Assembly (NCBI GenBank): GCA_963829055.1
Contig: CAWHHI010000012.1
Span: forward strand, 352,001 to 416,000
DNA: 64,000 nucleotides
Direction of reading: 5' to 3'
From: an uncultured Gemmatimonadaceae bacterium
GTDB taxonomy: Bacteria > Gemmatimonadota > Gemmatimonadetes > Gemmatimonadales > Gemmatimonadaceae
The position numbers were made by a program, and so were the translations under genes. The notes under the pieces were generated by a model that saw nothing but the letters and a program-made list of their open reading frames with translations, was not told the origin of the DNA and ran no database searches. This document shows, in pieces, positions 12,727 through 20,452 of the stretch (the stretch's first letter is position 1; each line of letters opens with the position of its first letter).

Positions 12727-12860
12727 GCGCCAACTTCGACGCGCGTTTCGACACCGGCTGCGACAGTCGTGCGAGGGCAAAATGACGCCTGACTGACGCG
12801 TTGCGTTTAATTGGAGCCGTGACGACTTTCTCAGATCCGTACACGGAGCCAGCAGTCCGC

Positions 12861-15800
12861 ATGATTCGCTTGCGGGCGTTAGGGCAATGCGTCGTCGAGG
12901 TCGGCGACCATCAGATCACGCCGGAATCGGACGTCCTCTTCGCGCTTCTGCTGTTCCTCAGCATGAGCGCGGGACGCGCCGTTCCCCGCGCTGAGCTGCT
13001 GGATCTACTCTGGCCCGATAGCGCGCCAAGAAACGCGCGACATCGCCTGCGGCAGGCGCTCTATCAACTCAAGAAGCTCGGCGCTCCGCTCGGGACGCTC
13101 GACTCGTTCGTCAATCGTGCGCGAAGCGGACGTCGAGGTCGACTACGTCCTCGGTGCGAGGAGTCGCCAGGCGCTGACGCGATCGGTCGCGGAAACGTCG
13201 CCGCTCGACTTCCTTCCGCACTATACGCCGACGTTCTCGGAGCCGTTCGCCCGCTGGGTGGAGTCCGAGCGTGATCGTGTGCGTGGGTCACTGCGTCGCT
13301 ATCTGCTGGAGGTCGTGGCGGACGCGCGACTCCGCGGGGACCACGCCGCCATCGTCGTGCTCGCGCGGGCATGCCTGGACCTCGATCCGCTGAATGGCGA
13401 CGCGACGTTCGCGCTGGCGGAAGCCCTCGCCGTGCGTGGCAACAGGGCCGAAGCGCTGGGCGTGCTCGATCAGTATCGGGCAGAGCGCCGAACGGATCAT
13501 GACGAGTCGCTGCGCGCCGCTCTGGCGCTTGCGGAAGCGGATTCTCGAGGCGGCGCGGCGATCGCCGTACGACGCGTCGCGTCAGGCGGAGCTCGTCGGT
13601 CGCGCGGAGATCGTGAGCGATCTGAGCGCGTGGATCTCCACCGGTGCCCACGTACGAACCGTCCTGGCGCTCTCGGGCGAGGCGGGTATCGGAAAAACCC
13701 GCCTGCTCGCGGAGGGCGCGCGCATTGCCGCGCTGCATGGCTTCCGCTGCCTCGAGTATCGCCCGGGCGCGAACGGCGAGGACCGCCCGCTCGCGGGGCT
13801 GCTGGATCTTCTCCCGCAGTTGCTCGCGCTTCCGGGAGCAGTCGGGTGCAACCCCGATTCGTACGGACGCCTCACGGAGCTCGCGCGTGGCGTTCACGCC
13901 GAGACCTCGATTCCGGCGGACACGACCGACTCGGCGTTCCGCTTCGCGACCTTGAGGCGGTCGGTCCTCGACCTCATCGAGGCGATTCTGACCGAGTGCG
14001 GCATTCTGCTGTCGCTCGACGATGCGCACGCGTTGGATCGGCCAACGCTCGAGATTCTGCTCGATGCGACCCGGTGCGGTGGACATCGGTTGGCGGTGCT
14101 GACAGCGATGCGTCCGGTGGGGCCGACGGCGGCGTTCCTGGAGGCACGCGCCGATGTGCGCCTCGTTCGCGTGCCTCGGCTCGATGCGGCGGCGTCGAGG
14201 CTGGTGGTGGCGCGGGATCTTCCGCCGCACGTCGCGGCGGAGCGCAAGAAGCTGATCGACTGGGCGGTGGACCTGGCGAACGGGAACCCCTTCTTCCTGG
14301 TCGAACTGTCAGCACACTGCGGGGGTGACGATCCGGGCGAATCTCTGCCGGAGTCCCTGCAGAGCGCGTTGGAGCGGAAGCTGGACGCGTTGTCGGCAAA
14401 CGCGAGGCTCGTGGTGCAGGCGTGTGCCGTGCTGGCGCAGAATTCGACGCTGGCGCGCCTGGAGACGATGTTGGCCCTGCCACCCCATGCGACGGCGAGC
14501 GCGCTGTCAGAATTGGAGCTGGCGGGCCTTATCGCGTCGCGTGATGGTCGGGTGGGGTGTCGGCATGATCTGATCGCGGATGCGGTGATGCGCGGGCTGG
14601 GTGGGACGCTCGGGAGCTACATGCATCGCCGGTGCGCGGTGGTGCTGGACCAGGAGCTGCGGTCGTCACCGGTGCCGTCTATCGCGTGGGACTGCGCACG
14701 GCACTGGGATGCGGCTGACGAACCGACGCGAGCACTCGAGCTGACCGGACTCATTGTCGACCGGTTGCTTTCGCTTGGGCCTGCCGAAGGCTGCAGCAGA
14801 CCTGTGCAGCGAGCAGAGCGGTACTGCAGGACGCGCAGAACAGCACGCCGAGCGGCTCTGTCGACTCAGCCGGGCTCTGCCGACTACTGTACGACTGGGA
14901 CGGCGTAATTGACGCACTGGAAAAGCGTCGGACGACTACTTCGAACCGCAGTCGACACTCGGCAGAGCATACGCGGAAGATGAGATCGCGCTGTTCGAAG
15001 CTCGATGGTGGCGCGACTACGACGGTCGCGTGCTCCGCCCGCGCTTCGGCGCGTAGTCGATGAGACGAGCGCCAACGCTCCATCGACTGCAAATGGCCGT
15101 CTTAGCCTGATCGTGGCTGACAACCACCAACGCGCGCGGACGCAGCTGACCAAATCGCGGGAATGCGTGGAAACAGTCGATCGCCACGACGCCCGCGAGA
15201 GACTCGAACAAGAGCTAGGGCTCGACTGTCTATCACTCTGCGTTCGGCGATCTCGACGAAGCCGTCTCGGACGGCAACGCGCGTTGTCGAGACCGAGCGA
15301 AGCGTAGCGGCACTTCGGCTGGACTTACTGCAGCGCGCTTCGCTGGTCGAGTATCCCTCTTAAGTTCGCTAACAACATGAAAGCGGCAATTGCAGCGCCT
15401 TCGACGAGGCCTATGATCGAGCGTCGCGGTCTAGAGCTTAGCGCCGAAATGTGGAATGCCGCCTACTATCTTGGAGGACCTCGCGCTGACTGCGAGGACG
15501 TGCGTCTCGCAGCTGGAATGGGCTCCGATATGCATGGCGATCGCTAGCGGAAGACGCCGACCGATCACCGCTAAGATGCTTCGACTCGACTACTTCTGGC
15601 TCGATTAGCGTTAATGCACGGCGATGTCAGCGGGCCGAGGCAACTTCTTGATCGATCGCGTGGCAGCTTGAGAACAGTCGATACCTCGGACGCGCGCCGA
15701 GCGAATCCGTGCTGGCACTGGATGTATTGCTCAGAGTGCGAACGACGGGAGCACACGCGTCTCGAGCCAGCTCGTTGCAGCGCCTGCAGCGGCTGCACTT

Positions 15801-16008
15801 CAGCACTCGCGAGTGCGGAGTCCACGACTTTGAGACGGCGCCGCTATCATGGCCGGACTTCTGCACTCGGCGAAGTGGGATGACGCGAAGCGCATCTACG
15901 ACATCTACTATGCGCCAATTCCGACGATCACGTAGCTCGCGGTCCACTCGACGTTACGCAGGTCCAGAGCACTAGATCCGCTACCACGCTTGAGCGCAGT
16001 GCGCGCTA
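12861..16008 (+). CDS. SARP/BTAD - AAA NTPase - helical repeat regulator, multiply frameshifted
   Basis: LRALG..RAELLDLLWP..RHRLRQALYQLKK; LDLDPLN (BTAD); GEAGIGKTRLL Walker A; LDDAH Walker B; GNPFFLVEL; 3' part garbled and end uncertain. Confidence 0.8.
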
Positions 16009-17344
16009 GATCACCTTGGTCGCCAGTTCGCATTCTTGGGCGACGCCGTTCGGCGTACGATCGATAGATTTCAGCCCAGGCTTCGCGTCGTCGACAATGC
16101 GGTCGCAAATCGCCGGGTCGAACTGCCGTCCTCGGAATCGCACGAACTCAGCTTTCGCCTCATCGACGCCAGCGCCTTCCGGTAAGGCCGGTCGGTCGTC
16201 ATCGCATCCAGCGTGTCGGCGAACATGATGATCCGCGATGCCAGCGGGAATCGACTCGCCCTTAATTCCGTCCGGATATCCGGTGCCGTCCCAGTTCTCG
16301 TGGTGATGTACGCACCGCCGGAACGACGTCCTTCGAGACTCGAGAGCAGACCAACGAGCTCGGCACTCCGAATCGGGTGACGCTTCATCATGTCCCACTC
16401 TTCTGGCGTTAGGCGACCCTCTTTCGCCAGAATTGGAGCAAACGCTTCGTCAATTTTTCCAACATCGTGAAGCAGCGCCGCAACGCCTACTCGCTCGACC
16501 TCAGCCGGCCGCAGCCCAATGGCGCTCGCGATGATCTTCGATGCTCGTGAGACGCGTTGGGAGTGGCCGGACGTGTACGGATCGCGCGCTTCGATTGCCG
16601 CGACCATCAGATCGAGCAGTTCTTCGGTGACCTTCGTTAGCTCAACGGTCGTTCGATACAGCTGCCGAACGCCCAGCAACGGGATGACCAGCGCCGCCGC
16701 ACCGCCTGGACCGAGGCCGCTGTAGAGCCACGCTAGGTAGAAGGTCAGAAACGCGGTGAGCGCAATGAATGGAGCAGTCGGCAGCGTGGTCGCCTTCCAG
16801 ATATCGACCACGCTGCGTTGCTGAACGATCGCGACCACGCCGCTGACGGTCGCCGTGTTTACCAGGATGACGCGTCAGCGACCAAGCAGGCCCGACCGAG
16901 CACCAGCTGCGAACGCGCGACGACGAGGAACGACGACCGCTTGGAGCAAGGAAAGACGAGCCACCTGCAGCTCTGTACACAAGTATCGCGAGCGACAGAC
17001 CCAAGTACCATTTGGGCGACGTTGAATAGCGCCCTTGACCCAGTGTCGCTTGCAGAGGATTTGAACCGATGCGCTGCCCACGCCGATTGCGGCAACAGCC
17101 GCCCAAGTCGGGCGCACAAAGCGCAGCCGCAGCGAACGGGATCAGTGAGATCGATCCGGTGCGCGCCCTTCGACGTGCTCATAGCTCAGCATTTCGGCGC
17201 CGACACCGAGAGCAGACAGCATAATAGCGCCGCGTAGAAACTGCGCACGCGTAACGCCGCCGATGCGTCTGTACAGACTACTAAGGCGGCAGCGATCCGG
17301 CGACTAGCGCAAACGATCGCGACGAACGGCAACGCCCGCTGCAT
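16006..17344 (-). CDS. Membrane-anchored HD-GYP phosphodiesterase, multiply frameshifted
   Basis: EARDPYTSGHSQRV, LLHDVGKI, HHHENWDGTGYPDG, ADTLDAMTTDRPYRKA, QFDP in successive frames; multi-TM N-terminus. Confidence 0.88.
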
Positions 17345-17534
17345 TTCGTTGCCCGAATTCGCACGAGGACGCCGCCGCGTCTCAAACACGCCCTGCCAAG
17401 GGCGCGGCGAGAGTCTCGTTAGGTCATTGCTTGGTCGGCTCACAGGCATTCGTCAGCTGGGCGCGGCTCGTCAGGGTGGAGTCGTGGAGGGCGGCCCTGC
17501 GTCAGGCTGAGGCTATGTCGCGCTACAGAAAGTC

Positions 17535-17578
17535 GCCCTGGTGGTCGCGAATACATGTTGCGAGTAGACACCGAGGGC
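17535..17578 (-). terminator. GC-rich hairpin downstream of the short peptide ORF
   Basis: GCCCTcGGTG...CACCAGGGC stem followed by GACTTTCT. Confidence 0.5.
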
Positions 17579-17590
17579 CCCGCTCCTCCC

Positions 17591-17638
17591 CTAGATCCAA
17601 CTGATCATCTGGGCCAGGGCAAGGATCCAAGAGATCAT
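17591..17638 (-). CDS. 15-aa peptide MISWILALAQMISWI
   Basis: GGGAGGTGA Shine-Dalgarno 8 nt before ATG; MISWI repeated with different Ser codons; TAG stop. Confidence 0.7.
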   Translation of the reverse strand: MISWILALAQMISWI

Positions 17639-17665
17639 AAAACGCGTCACCTCCCATTCAGTAAC

Positions 17666-17795
17666 GTCATACGCGCTTTTTGGGCGACGTATGCGACTCA
17701 GGTTGGCTCCGCTCGTAGTGCTTACTGGATTTGCCCGCTCAACTCGACTCCGCTCCTTGCGGGAACGGGGGCCGTCTCGGTTGTCGACTTACTTA
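17666..17795 (-). promoter_or_regulatory. Candidate structured RNA leader
   Basis: GCAA-capped hairpin at 17750-17768 with outer CGGC/GUCG pairing; second hairpin CATACG..CGTATG at 17666-17697. Confidence 0.4.
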
Positions 17796-17885
17796 TCTGA
17801 GGATCGCCTCTCGACTCCTATTCCTGAAGTTTGATCTCAGTCGCACCGGCGCAGACACGGCACGACCTGTTCGCTAGTACGTATG

Positions 17886-18668
17886 CTATCGCGTATGCGC
17901 GATCCAGCGGTTCGTCGCATCCAACACGGCCAACACACTCGCCGTCTCGGCGCTTTCCCGGATCTCGCAGCTTCCCGTCAACAAGGCACTCGTCCGCGCC
18001 AGCCGCGCCGTCACACCGACGAACACGAACTCGCGATCGAACGCCTCGATCAGTCGCACGCCATCCAGCGCCAACGCGCGATCACTCGGCTCCGCCAGCG
18101 CCAGCGCCTGTAACGCCGCCCGCGCCGCGAGCTCGATGCGCGATCGCTCGTTCTCCATTCCCTCGGCCTCGCCCACAAAGGACTCGTCGCCCTTCTTGAG
18201 CGTCACGCGACAGGCGATCCCCTTCGCGCGCGACCGGCGCACTTCGACGTCCTCGAAGTAGAGCAGCCGCCCATTCGCGCGCTCCACCTTCACCGGCAGC
18301 GTCGGCGTCACGGGCGCAGCAGCGGCGGCATCCGCCGCCGCCTTCGCCTCACGCTCCTTCGCGGCCTCGCGCAACGCTTCCTTCGATGGTTGCGATTCCA
18401 ACGTTGTCGCCACCGAGATCTTGCGATGGTCGACACGCATGCCGAGATGCGCGATCAACGCGCTCTCGATATTGCGAACCGTCTGCTTCGGTGTGACTTC
18501 CGACGTCGTGAGCACGTGGATCTCATCCACCGCGCCGTTGTCACTCGCGATGATCCGCGCCGCGATCACTCCCGGCAGCGTCGCCAGCAACTCCTCCGCA
18601 CGCCTGATGGGAAGAACGCTGCCAGCTATGAGCGAAGAAGAATGCGGGAGCGGCTGCGGCACAGTCAT
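17886..18668 (-). CDS. Hypothetical protein
   Basis: Clean ORF with VDEIHVL..PKQTVRNIESAL..VDHRKISVA and AVLDATNR; start uncertain. Confidence 0.75.
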   Translation of the reverse strand: MTVPQPLPHSSSLIAGSVLPIRRAEELLATLPGVIAARIIASDNGAVDEIHVLTTSEVTPKQTVRNIESALIAHLGMRVDHRKISVATTLESQPSKEALREAAKEREAKAAADAAAAAPVTPTLPVKVERANGRLLYFEDVEVRRSRAKGIACRVTLKKGDESFVGEAEGMENERSRIELAARAALQALALAEPSDRALALDGVRLIEAFDREFVFVGVTARLARTSALLTGSCEIRESAETASVLAVLDATNRWIAHTR

Positions 18669-18796
18669 TCGGGGAGGGGGCGAGGCAGGCCGCGATGCGG
18701 CCCAGTACAACGGCGTGTGTGACATGTTCCGCCGACAGTCTCCGGTAGGTCAACCGGGGGGATTTTGGCCGGACTATTATGAGCCCGATGAGGCTG

Positions 18797-20452
18797 TTAA
18801 TCAAGCGCGGAAGTGTCCACAACCAATTGGTATTCTCTAAGCTTCCGGTACAGCGTCCGCTCTCCTATCCCTAACAACTCCGCCGCCTTACGACGATTGC
18901 CGCGCGTCTCTCGCAACGCCGACTCGATGGCCGCGCGCTCGATCTCCGCCATCGTCATCCCCGGCCGAATCGTCACAACGCTCGGAGGGGGCGGCTGGTC
19001 CCGCGGTTCGATGCCCGATGGCGCCAAACGGAGCGCCGGACGACACGTCCGCCGGCCATACCGGGCCGCGCCCAGGACCGAGTGCCGGGGTTTGCGCCGG
19101 GCCGGGCATCGTGCGGTCGATCACTTCGATCGGTGGTCCGAGGACACTACTCGCCGCGCGCGTCAGCTGCTCGCGCGCCATGCGCTCTTCACCGAGTTGC
19201 CGGCGGAGCTCCTCGACCTGGAGCTTGAGCTCGACGAGACTCCGCACGATGAACTCCAACTCCCGCCCCTCGACGCCGGAGCGCTCGCGAACGATCGGCC
19301 CGACATGGACGGGAAGAAATCGTGCCGTCCCGCCCTCACGAATCTGACGCGGGATGTCGGCCGGGCCGATCTCGCGTCCGGGCGCGAGCACCACCATGCT
19401 CTCCACCAGATTGCGCAGCTCGCGCACGTTTCCCGGCCACGCATACTGTACGAGCTTGTCGAGCGCCTCCGGAGAGATGCCCTTGAACGGGCGATCGTGC
19501 TGACGCGACAGCTCGGTGATGAACTGCCTGACGAGTATCGGAATGTCCTCACGCCGTTCGCGCAGCGGCGGGAGATAGATGCTCAGCACGTTCAACCGGT
19601 AGTAGAGGTCAGCGCGAAACCTCCCCTCCTCGATCCCGTCGCGCAGCGGATTGTTCGTCGCCGCGATCGACACGCACATCGACGGGAATGGTCTGCGTGC
19701 CACCGACGCGCGTGATCTCGCGCTCCTCGAGCACGCGCAACAGCTTCACCTGCGTCGCGAGCGGCACGTCGCCGATCTCGTCGAGAAAGATCGTGCCGGT
19801 ATTCGCAAGCTCGAAGCGACCGATGCGTCGCTCGGTCGGCGCCGGTGAACGAGCCCTTCTCGTGTCCGAACAGCTCACTCTCGAGTAGCGTGTCCGGCAG
19901 CGCCCCGACGTTCACGGCGATGAACGGCTTCGACCGTCGTGGACTGAGCCGATGAATCGCTCGCGCAACCAGCTCCTTGCCCGTTCCGCTCTCGCCCTCG
20001 ATGAGCACCGTGCTGGATACCGGCGCGATCTGCTCGACCTTCACGAGCACTTCGCGGATGGCTTCCGACTGTCCGATCAGTCCCGTTAGGCGCGACAGCC
20101 GCCGCCGATCGAGCAGTCGCCGAATCGCGTCGACCACCTCGTCGACCACGATCGGCTTCGGATACACCTCCACGAAACCGATCGCGCGCAGCCGTTCATC
20201 GATCTCGGGATCGCGGACGTCCGCCAGCCCAACGACGGCCACACCTTCCCACAGCATCTCCCGAACGAGCGCGACGTTCTGCGGATCGACGAGCGCTCCA
20301 GTCATGACAATGACGTCGGGCTGCTCACGTCGGATGGCGCCGCGGACGTCGTCGAGTGGAGATACCACCGCGGTCTCCACACCGGATGCCTCGAGTTGGG
20401 CGTTGAGGCGAACCGCAGGTTCGACGTCGGTCAGACTAATCAGGACTTTCAC
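18797..20452 (-). CDS. Sigma-54-dependent activator with atypical receiver domain (about three frameshifts)
   Basis: [51 protein letters not shown], Fis [15 protein letters not shown]. Confidence 0.9.

Follow-up and report, generated by a model that had tools for sequence, protein, structure and literature searches.

The window, by which we mean the whole 64,000-nt stretch of DNA analysed here, holds on its minus strand an upstream conserved protein gene (17886..18725), a structured leader containing a micro-ORF of 15 codons (17591..17638), and a gene for a membrane HD-GYP phosphodiesterase (16006..17449). The micro-ORF runs from an ATG at 17638 to a TAG ending at 17591 and encodes MISWILALAQMISWI, a hydrophobic, amphipathic peptide with Trp as its second-last residue. 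As the first-pass annotation of this DNA had described, it is preceded by the Shine-Dalgarno (SD) word GGGAGGTGA at 17655-17647 (extended to GGGAGGTGACGC at 17644..17655) with a spacer of 8 nt, it encodes its first Ser by TCT and its second by AGT, and it has the same orientation as the multi-TM HD-GYP gene. That annotation had also taken the MISWI at both ends of the peptide to be a repeat conserved as peptide rather than as DNA, a view that did not survive comparison: the two copies are identical at 13 of 15 nucleotides, and an exact 5-mer repeat occurs in 1 of the 32 distinct peptides of the window's clade. The same-genus peptides of two genomes, MISWLLALAQLISWN and MISWLLALASLISWN, read MISWL...LISWN in its place. 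Among 869 SD-led ORFs of 10-35 aa in the window's genome, four have a repeated 5-mer, and only MISWILALAQMISWI of these is hydrophobic; the exact MISWI repeat is a peculiarity of this genome. A near-identical public contig differs within the ORF by a single listed change, a synonymous CTG>TTG at 17617, and has indels near 19013-19020, at the sigma-54 activator described below. Since assembled contigs cannot reveal transcript ends, strand or level, we left out of the evidence an RNA-library contig from a relative that covers 17592-17834; thin coverage of the HD-GYP gene in the same RNA runs likewise carries no evidential weight.

The HD-GYP gene, a nearby sigma-54 activator and an AAA regulator are each spread over several frames, so assembly indels are likely, and the 3' end of the enzyme gene is approximate. 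Its start is probably the in-frame ATG at 17449, 141 nt past the peptide stop, since the reading from there begins MPVSRP and matches the N-terminus MPVTRP of a congener; no SD word lies ahead of this ATG. An earlier start is possible, given that ATG 17546 is only one base out of frame (a single indel would restore it) and that the congener has an in-frame ATG of its own about 50 nt past the peptide stop. The distance of about 250 nt between peptide and enzyme in the first-pass annotation fits ATG 17344, whereas the likelier start lies 141 nt away. The frameshifted copy in the window has no Pfam match and was assigned by orthology. All four catalytic motifs are present in it, over two frames; these motifs (HD, HHE..GYP, D..DA and RPYR) occur in 90, 86, 88 and 92, respectively, of 93 intact orthologues. 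Judged by its sequence, the window enzyme is an orthologue of membrane HD-GYP c-di-GMP phosphodiesterases, with predicted catalysis. In six congeners the enzyme was not found with the queries used, and four same-genus contigs that hold the upstream gene (L142-L145) all stop inside that gene or shortly past the micro-ORF. A plasmid search with the MASE9 part of the enzyme, described next, gave no match.

The sensor domain MASE9 (PF20972) lies N-terminal to HD-GYP, with a match in 69 of 84 intact orthologues at E<=0.01 and above the cut-off in L006 and L008. To our knowledge this orphan sensor has no established ligand. The L008 MASE9 domain, modelled with AlphaFold (pLDDT 93.5), gave as its best VIA-align match to ECF S-components a Z of 13.9 (rmsd 2.9, 160 aligned); S-type components of ECF transporters fill the best 14 rows, at Z 10-14, before another family appears at 8.2, and the Foldseek E for the S-component match is only 0.036. 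As modelled, MASE9 has the six-helix topology of the ECF S-component, a ligand-pocket fold; this is a likeness of fold alone and does not imply a ligand. The S-components among the structural matches bind vitamins or metals. Galperin and Chou, in the text of their preprint cited here, class MASE9 as an uncharacterised sensor with predicted intramembrane ligand binding (bioRxiv 10.1101/2021.11.05.467447). MASE9 evolves faster than the HD domain of the same proteins (mean distance 0.70 vs 0.36). Enzymes of the window's clade (17449-17390 in the window; also L002, L003 and L032-L059) bear an N-terminal extension in which an RLxPRPW motif is conserved, and in this clade a variable spacer of 100-200 nt past the peptide goes with shorter, two-Trp peptides.

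The check proposed with the first-pass annotation, a search for syntenic micro-ORFs with synonymous variation upstream of orthologous HD-GYP genes, found them at nearly all of these loci. Enzyme orthologues are present in 215 of 401 family genomes (a tally that includes five unpublished genomes), and the named records that hold them are mostly Gemmatimonadota MAGs. We inspected 138 loci, 133 of the MASE9 type and 5 non-MASE9 HD-GYP controls. Nine of the 133 had no upstream room, and of the 124 assessable Gemmatimonadota loci 123 have a small hydrophobic ORF upstream (118 called by rule, 5 by hand owing to weaker SD matches); the sole miss, L023, has a frameshifted copy of the micro-ORF. None of the five controls has a hydrophobic Trp ORF, a weak control because two of them lack upstream room. 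Removal of six duplicate loci left 117 distinct peptides of 15-35 aa (median 21), with Trp last or second-last in 108 and no terminal Trp in 9. One of the nine exceptions, L005, comes from an unpublished genome (G013) that also entered the tests of helix arms and leader pattern described below; no conclusion depends on L005.

Selection acts on the encoded amino acids. Across 25 disjoint pairs picked on leader DNA (471 codons), pN/pS is 0.48 in the peptide frame as against 1.07 and 1.44 in the other two, and differences at the three codon positions number 141/101/198; the window ORF differs from that of MISWLLALAQLISWN by 5 synonymous changes over 9 sites and 4 replacement changes over 33. The micro-ORF is a real, conserved protein-coding gene. 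Its product is an amphipathic helix with a short terminal Trp tail: 108 of 118 peptides have a helical moment higher than the median of their shuffles (p<0.05 in 28), and the Trp is preceded by a small residue at -5 and Asp/Glu/Gly at -4. In the window's clade, 29 of 30 peptides contain 2-4 Trp, and a Trp lies 10-11 residues ahead of the terminal Trp, about three helical turns, in 27 of its 32 distinct peptides. Of the 118 peptides, 110 are neutral or negatively charged overall, and just 9 have Lys or Arg within the first five residues, so ordinary Sec export is unlikely; a Sec precursor's basic n-region ahead of a hydrophobic core is not a general feature of this Gemmatimonadota set of 118. 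Searches of Pfam and NCBIfam with five peptides of 23-35 aa returned no family. Variant peptides ending in His (L005, L067), with Trp 3-6 residues from the end (L014, L093, L098, L105, L117) or without Trp (L012) are natural variants usable for studies of specificity. The suggestion in the first-pass annotation that the peptide modulates the HD-GYP membrane domain is thus supported in part: the coding sequence is conserved, and amphipathicity, selection and the terminal Trp fit a role at the level of the molecule.

Around the ORF lies an RNA element of about 230 nt (z -2.0 for the window copy), closed by a long-range helix, P1, whose 5' strand is at 17762..17789 and whose 3' strand, at 17563..17586, begins 4 nt past the stop codon. 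The strong hairpin that had been noted just downstream of the ORF proved to be this 3' strand: 17590-17500 folds no better than its shuffles (z +0.87; 163 of 200 shuffles fold as well), and a local hairpin was rejected in favour of long-range pairing of this stretch with 17789-17762. In 105 of 119 loci with room, P1 duplex energy is -37.2 kcal/mol for cognate arms, compared with -30.2 for non-cognate arms, -28.9 for shuffled arms and -29.1 for coding controls. When all 105 5' arms are ranked, the cognate one comes first in 16 cases and falls within the top 5% in 45. The G-rich and C-rich strands are exchanged in L131, L139 and L140, and 13 of 118 3' arms have neither a G-run nor an SD-like word. 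Within the loop, a hairpin with a conserved bulged A and a variable stem (P3, 17660..17698) shows changes on both sides at 7 pairs among 29 sequences, and three AGCG(A/G)(A/G) repeats lie at 17754-17749, 17739-17734 and 17713-17708; at least three copies of this repeat occur in 94 of 104 leaders, compared with 1 of 104 coding control stretches. The last repeat overlaps a candidate anti-SD strand, GCG-GA-GCC-AA-CC (17701..17712), which is predicted to pair with the SD at a probability of about 0.97 in the window copy, and the inner pairs of this stem are possible in 86-106 of 106 loci. The strand is conserved and shows no compensatory changes, as would follow from an invariant SD side, and, averaged over 104 loci, openness is at least as high in the SD window as across the entire leader (0.39 vs 0.38). 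By covariation, the ORF is embedded in a closed-loop RNA, with a putatively paired ribosome-binding site.

Of 201 family genomes, 112 match a pattern running from the repeats to the SD, most of them a single time, compared with 2 matches for a reversed control; no second leader copy was found in the window's genome by blastn or by pattern. Two matches occur in G014, G055, G064, G093, G095, G100 and G157, some of them identical and possibly assembly duplicates, the pair in G100 being divergent. The leader of L046 is without hairpin P3 and part of the SD and retains the ORF and both P1 arms. A search of Rfam 15 with 20 loci at E<=5 found no match to the leader, the two chance matches both falling within the HD-GYP coding region.

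Homologues of the upstream protein number 2851 cluster representatives at E<=0.001. Pfam and NCBIfam searches assigned it to no family, and the ESM Atlas returned only unnamed Gemmatimonadota clusters. Its C-domain resembles the regulatory domain of LeuA/citramalate synthase (Foldseek E 3.5e-5; Z 9.4, rmsd 3.2, 110 aligned), and its small N-domain has a CDF-CTD/BolA-like fold. Tandem dsRNA-binding domains are also among the structural matches of the C-domain, and RNA binding by this protein is a guess. Where a gene has been inserted after the upstream gene (L164, L169, L178 and others), the leader stays with the peptide; in one lineage (L164, L169, L178, L012, L020) the extra gene between upstream gene and leader, judged by eye, resembles a small response regulator. 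The sigma-54 activator, in several frames, lies immediately upstream of the module at 18888-20452 on the minus strand. On the other side of the enzyme, a convergent ORF belonging to one of two sequence clusters lies 3' of it in 75 of 86 loci (62 + 13). Three representatives match AAA_16, one of them also BTAD and, weakly, TPR. The frameshifted window copy (identified part 12801..14908, plus strand) is homologous to these (35%, E 7e-56), and we list this Trans_reg_C-BTAD-AAA-TPR regulator as a conserved neighbour and candidate module member only. The pairing of an adjacent histidine kinase with an AgrB-type processing gene that marks agr-type systems was not found in the module neighbourhood.

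The same gene order recurs in plasmid-collection records of two named Bacillota, Natranaerobius thermophilus and Subdoligranulum variabile: an upstream homologue, a hydrophobic ORF of 25-28 aa, a membrane HD-GYP gene and DUF5317. Both Bacillota peptides have basic residues near the N-terminus. AGCG repeats are kept in both leaders (L146:6662-6922 and L147:6608-6830), and the 5'-3' helix is also kept in that of Natranaerobius; for Subdoligranulum, the P1 test gave no support (z 0.2). DUF5317, a membrane gene next in line after the enzyme in Bacillota, was not found in 151 genomes of the phylum of the window, and no paper on it was found in the literature searched; both DUF5317 and MASE9 also match Thermus thermophilus and Thermotoga maritima. 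Distant homologues of the upstream protein, used to scan metagenomes, gave 82 loci, 60 of them with room; 52 had MASE9 and 49 a micro-ORF by rule (L214 being a false call), and most of the loci are Gemmatimonadota-like by GC and SD.

The peptide was tested for co-variation with the sensor. By partial correlation over all pairs of 74 loci, the peptide correlates with MASE9 at 0.23, with the HD domain at 0.05 and with the upstream protein at 0.07; the all-pairs value for leader and MASE9 is 0.05. Over all pairs of 42 loci, the values are 0.35 for peptide and MASE9 and -0.03 for peptide and convergent regulator. For 37 disjoint pairs, peptide and MASE9 give 0.34 (p 0.024), compared with 0.31 (p 0.03) for the non-coding leader as control, and 21 disjoint pairs give 0.08 (p 0.35). 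Within the window's clade there is no excess for MASE9 (0.14 vs 0.16 and 0.14). Because kin are not independent, co-evolution is weak support at best: the signal for co-variation beyond shared ancestry is mixed, inconsistent and lost under stricter tests.

We propose a three-part module of LeuA-regulatory-fold protein, closed-loop RNA with micro-ORF, and MASE9-HD-GYP enzyme, in which a translationally gated peptide binds MASE9 and tunes c-di-GMP breakdown, a proposal for which belief and doubt are about evenly balanced. The SD would be held in its stem, and synthesis of the peptide would have to await a remodelling of the RNA, perhaps brought about by the upstream protein as it binds the AGCG repeats. 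The peptide helix would then lodge in the inner membrane, and its Trp tail, intact or clipped, would enter the MASE9 pocket and alter c-di-GMP hydrolysis in either direction. Where P1 ends near the enzyme start, translation of the peptide may also couple both genes. We favour a role for the peptide as a molecule because the amino-acid constraint, the amphipathicity and the Trp tail exceed the needs of a passive uORF, and because P1 cannot cover the enzyme start in much of the window's clade; as a signal or partner of the MASE9 sensor domain, the peptide is a candidate, and unproven. Counting against this reading are the nine peptides that lack a terminal Trp, the scarcity of Lys and Arg near the N-terminus, the failure to find DUF5317 in 151 genomes of the phylum and, outside the window's clade, the closeness of the P1 G-run to the next ATG, which suits control in cis.

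The structured RNA enclosing the ORF also keeps a cis-regulatory reading in play, which we consider possible, if on balance doubtful: a ribosome finishing the micro-ORF would melt P1 and free the HD-GYP initiation region, much as mgtQ does for mgtB (as described in the cited sections of PMC8092293), and the peptide sequence would matter only for ribosome behaviour. It would account for a P1 3' strand that starts a few bases past the stop and covaries with the 5' strand (105 loci), for a G-run that outside the window's clade lies a median of 14 nt before the next ATG (69 loci), and for the missing SD word ahead of ATG 17449. It sits poorly, however, with the window's clade, where the G-run lies 72-294 nt ahead of the conserved PRPW motif (32 loci) and 10 of 28 loci have their first in-frame enzyme start more than 100 nt past the peptide stop, and with the C-rich arms of L131, L139 and L140; moreover, amphipathicity and a small-acidic-x-x-x-Trp tail would be unneeded for unmasking. 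Given those 10 of 28 distant starts and the 13 of 118 arms without G-run or SD-like word, P1 is not a general lock on the ribosome-binding site of the enzyme, and whether it overlaps the downstream initiation region in the window hinges on the choice between starts 17449 and 17546. A peptide that is a ligand and a leader that acts in cis can both hold. The peptide might instead signal to a cytoplasmic receptor, either the convergent BTAD-AAA-TPR regulator or the upstream protein. TPR receptors of peptides are established in the RRNPP family, the regulator is present at 75 of 86 loci with its AAA_16, BTAD and weak TPR matches, and the modelled fold of the upstream protein is an amino-acid-binding regulatory one. 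This is nevertheless unlikely: the all-pairs correlation of peptide and regulator is -0.03, disjoint pairs give 0.22 without reaching significance (p 0.17), and the regulator is not co-transcribed with the module and is not among the annotated genes after the module in the Natranaerobius record.

Very unlikely, in our estimate, is a type I toxin-like locus, in which an mRNA folded so as to sequester its SD and pair its 5' and 3' parts would encode a membrane-active peptide. PMC8594479 names SD sequestration and long-distance 5'-3' pairing among the determinants of type I toxin mRNAs; here the pairing (P1) is backed by covariation and the SD stem is predicted only, and an RNA of about 230 nt falls within their 150-400 nt. 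The locus nevertheless has a fixed place, flanked by the same pair of genes in Gemmatimonadota and Bacillota alike, mostly in one copy per genome; its peptide, at 15 aa, is shorter than their 20-60 aa, 110 of 118 peptides carry no net positive charge, and a sigma-70 scan, a weak guide in this phylum, found no antisense promoter-like site. Least probable is a tryptophan-sensing attenuator or arrest peptide, for which TrpL and TnaC are the reference cases. A Trp codon that is nearly invariant at one or two codons from the stop, beside the P1 3' strand, and the 2-4 Trp of 29 of 30 clade peptides would suit such a device, but adjacent Trp-Trp is uncommon among the peptides, some of which end without Trp, the downstream gene lies outside the Trp pathway, and no U-tract follows P1 in the window copy.

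With the peptide read as a MASE9 ligand, a broader and more doubtful picture can be drawn across phyla: an amino-acid-sensing LeuA-fold protein would read the AGCG repeats of a closed-loop mini-mRNA and license a strain-variable, Trp-tailed peptide as the ligand of MASE9, whose modelled fold is that of vitamin-transporter S-components. If so, this would be peptide-to-c-di-GMP signalling, possibly from cell to cell, in a diderm phylum. More generally, the proposed module would, if true, tie small-peptide signalling to c-di-GMP turnover, supply a ligand for a sensor of S-component fold and add an RNA motif absent from Rfam. A synthetic peptide and its cognate enzyme make the question of the MASE9 ligand directly and cheaply testable, and the authors of the S. 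venezuelae study suspected, in the portion cited here, missing activating signals for HdgA/HdgB (PMC6205966). No description of the module was found in the open-access PMC and bioRxiv literature, and the main text of the Galperin and Chou preprint contains neither 'peptide' nor 'Gemmatimonad'; the module, with peptide control of a membrane sensor as its proposed function, is real and undescribed in the open-access papers searched.

Several known systems share parts of this arrangement. MgrB and SafA, which act on PhoQ, are likewise short hydrophobic peptides on a membrane sensor, as is proposed here, and Trp is key in MgrB (both in the cited sections of PMC8534201). In our case, the putative target is a c-di-GMP phosphodiesterase and not a kinase, and the peptides, at 15-35 aa, are hypervariable, have no basic N-terminus and lie inside a closed-loop RNA. 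Peptide pheromones with an all-TM receptor, ComX and SHP among them, are a further comparison. With this type, represented by AIP and AgrC (PMC8534201), the module shares a variable peptide that has an amphipathic N-part and a short C-terminal tail and is encoded beside a fast-evolving membrane sensor. Unlike pheromone systems, the module has no gene dedicated to processing or export within the conserved neighbourhood covered here, its peptides have no cyclisation residue, its predicted output is c-di-GMP and its host here is diderm.

The mgtQ ORF of Salmonella, in the cited account (PMC8092293), is also a small ORF between two operon genes, overlapping a helix near the downstream start, whereas here the helix joins the 5' and 3' parts across about 200 nt and, in the window's clade, lies far from where the next gene starts, and the peptide is amphipathic and under amino-acid constraint. 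With type I toxin mRNAs (entries cited from T1TAdb, PMC8594479), the leader shares SD sequestration, which is predicted here, 5'-3' pairing and a small hydrophobic ORF; unlike them, it is operon-embedded and mostly single copy, with no antitoxin seen and with neutral or acidic peptides. The closest relatives of the enzyme itself are the MASE9-HD-GYP phosphodiesterases of the type of T. maritima TM1467 and S. venezuelae HdgA, (bioRxiv 10.1101/2021.11.05.467447; PMC6205966), whose domain architecture is the same in the intact orthologues. In contrast to those known enzymes, the gene here always follows a micro-ORF and a structured RNA, and the window's clade adds the N-terminal RLxPRPW extension.
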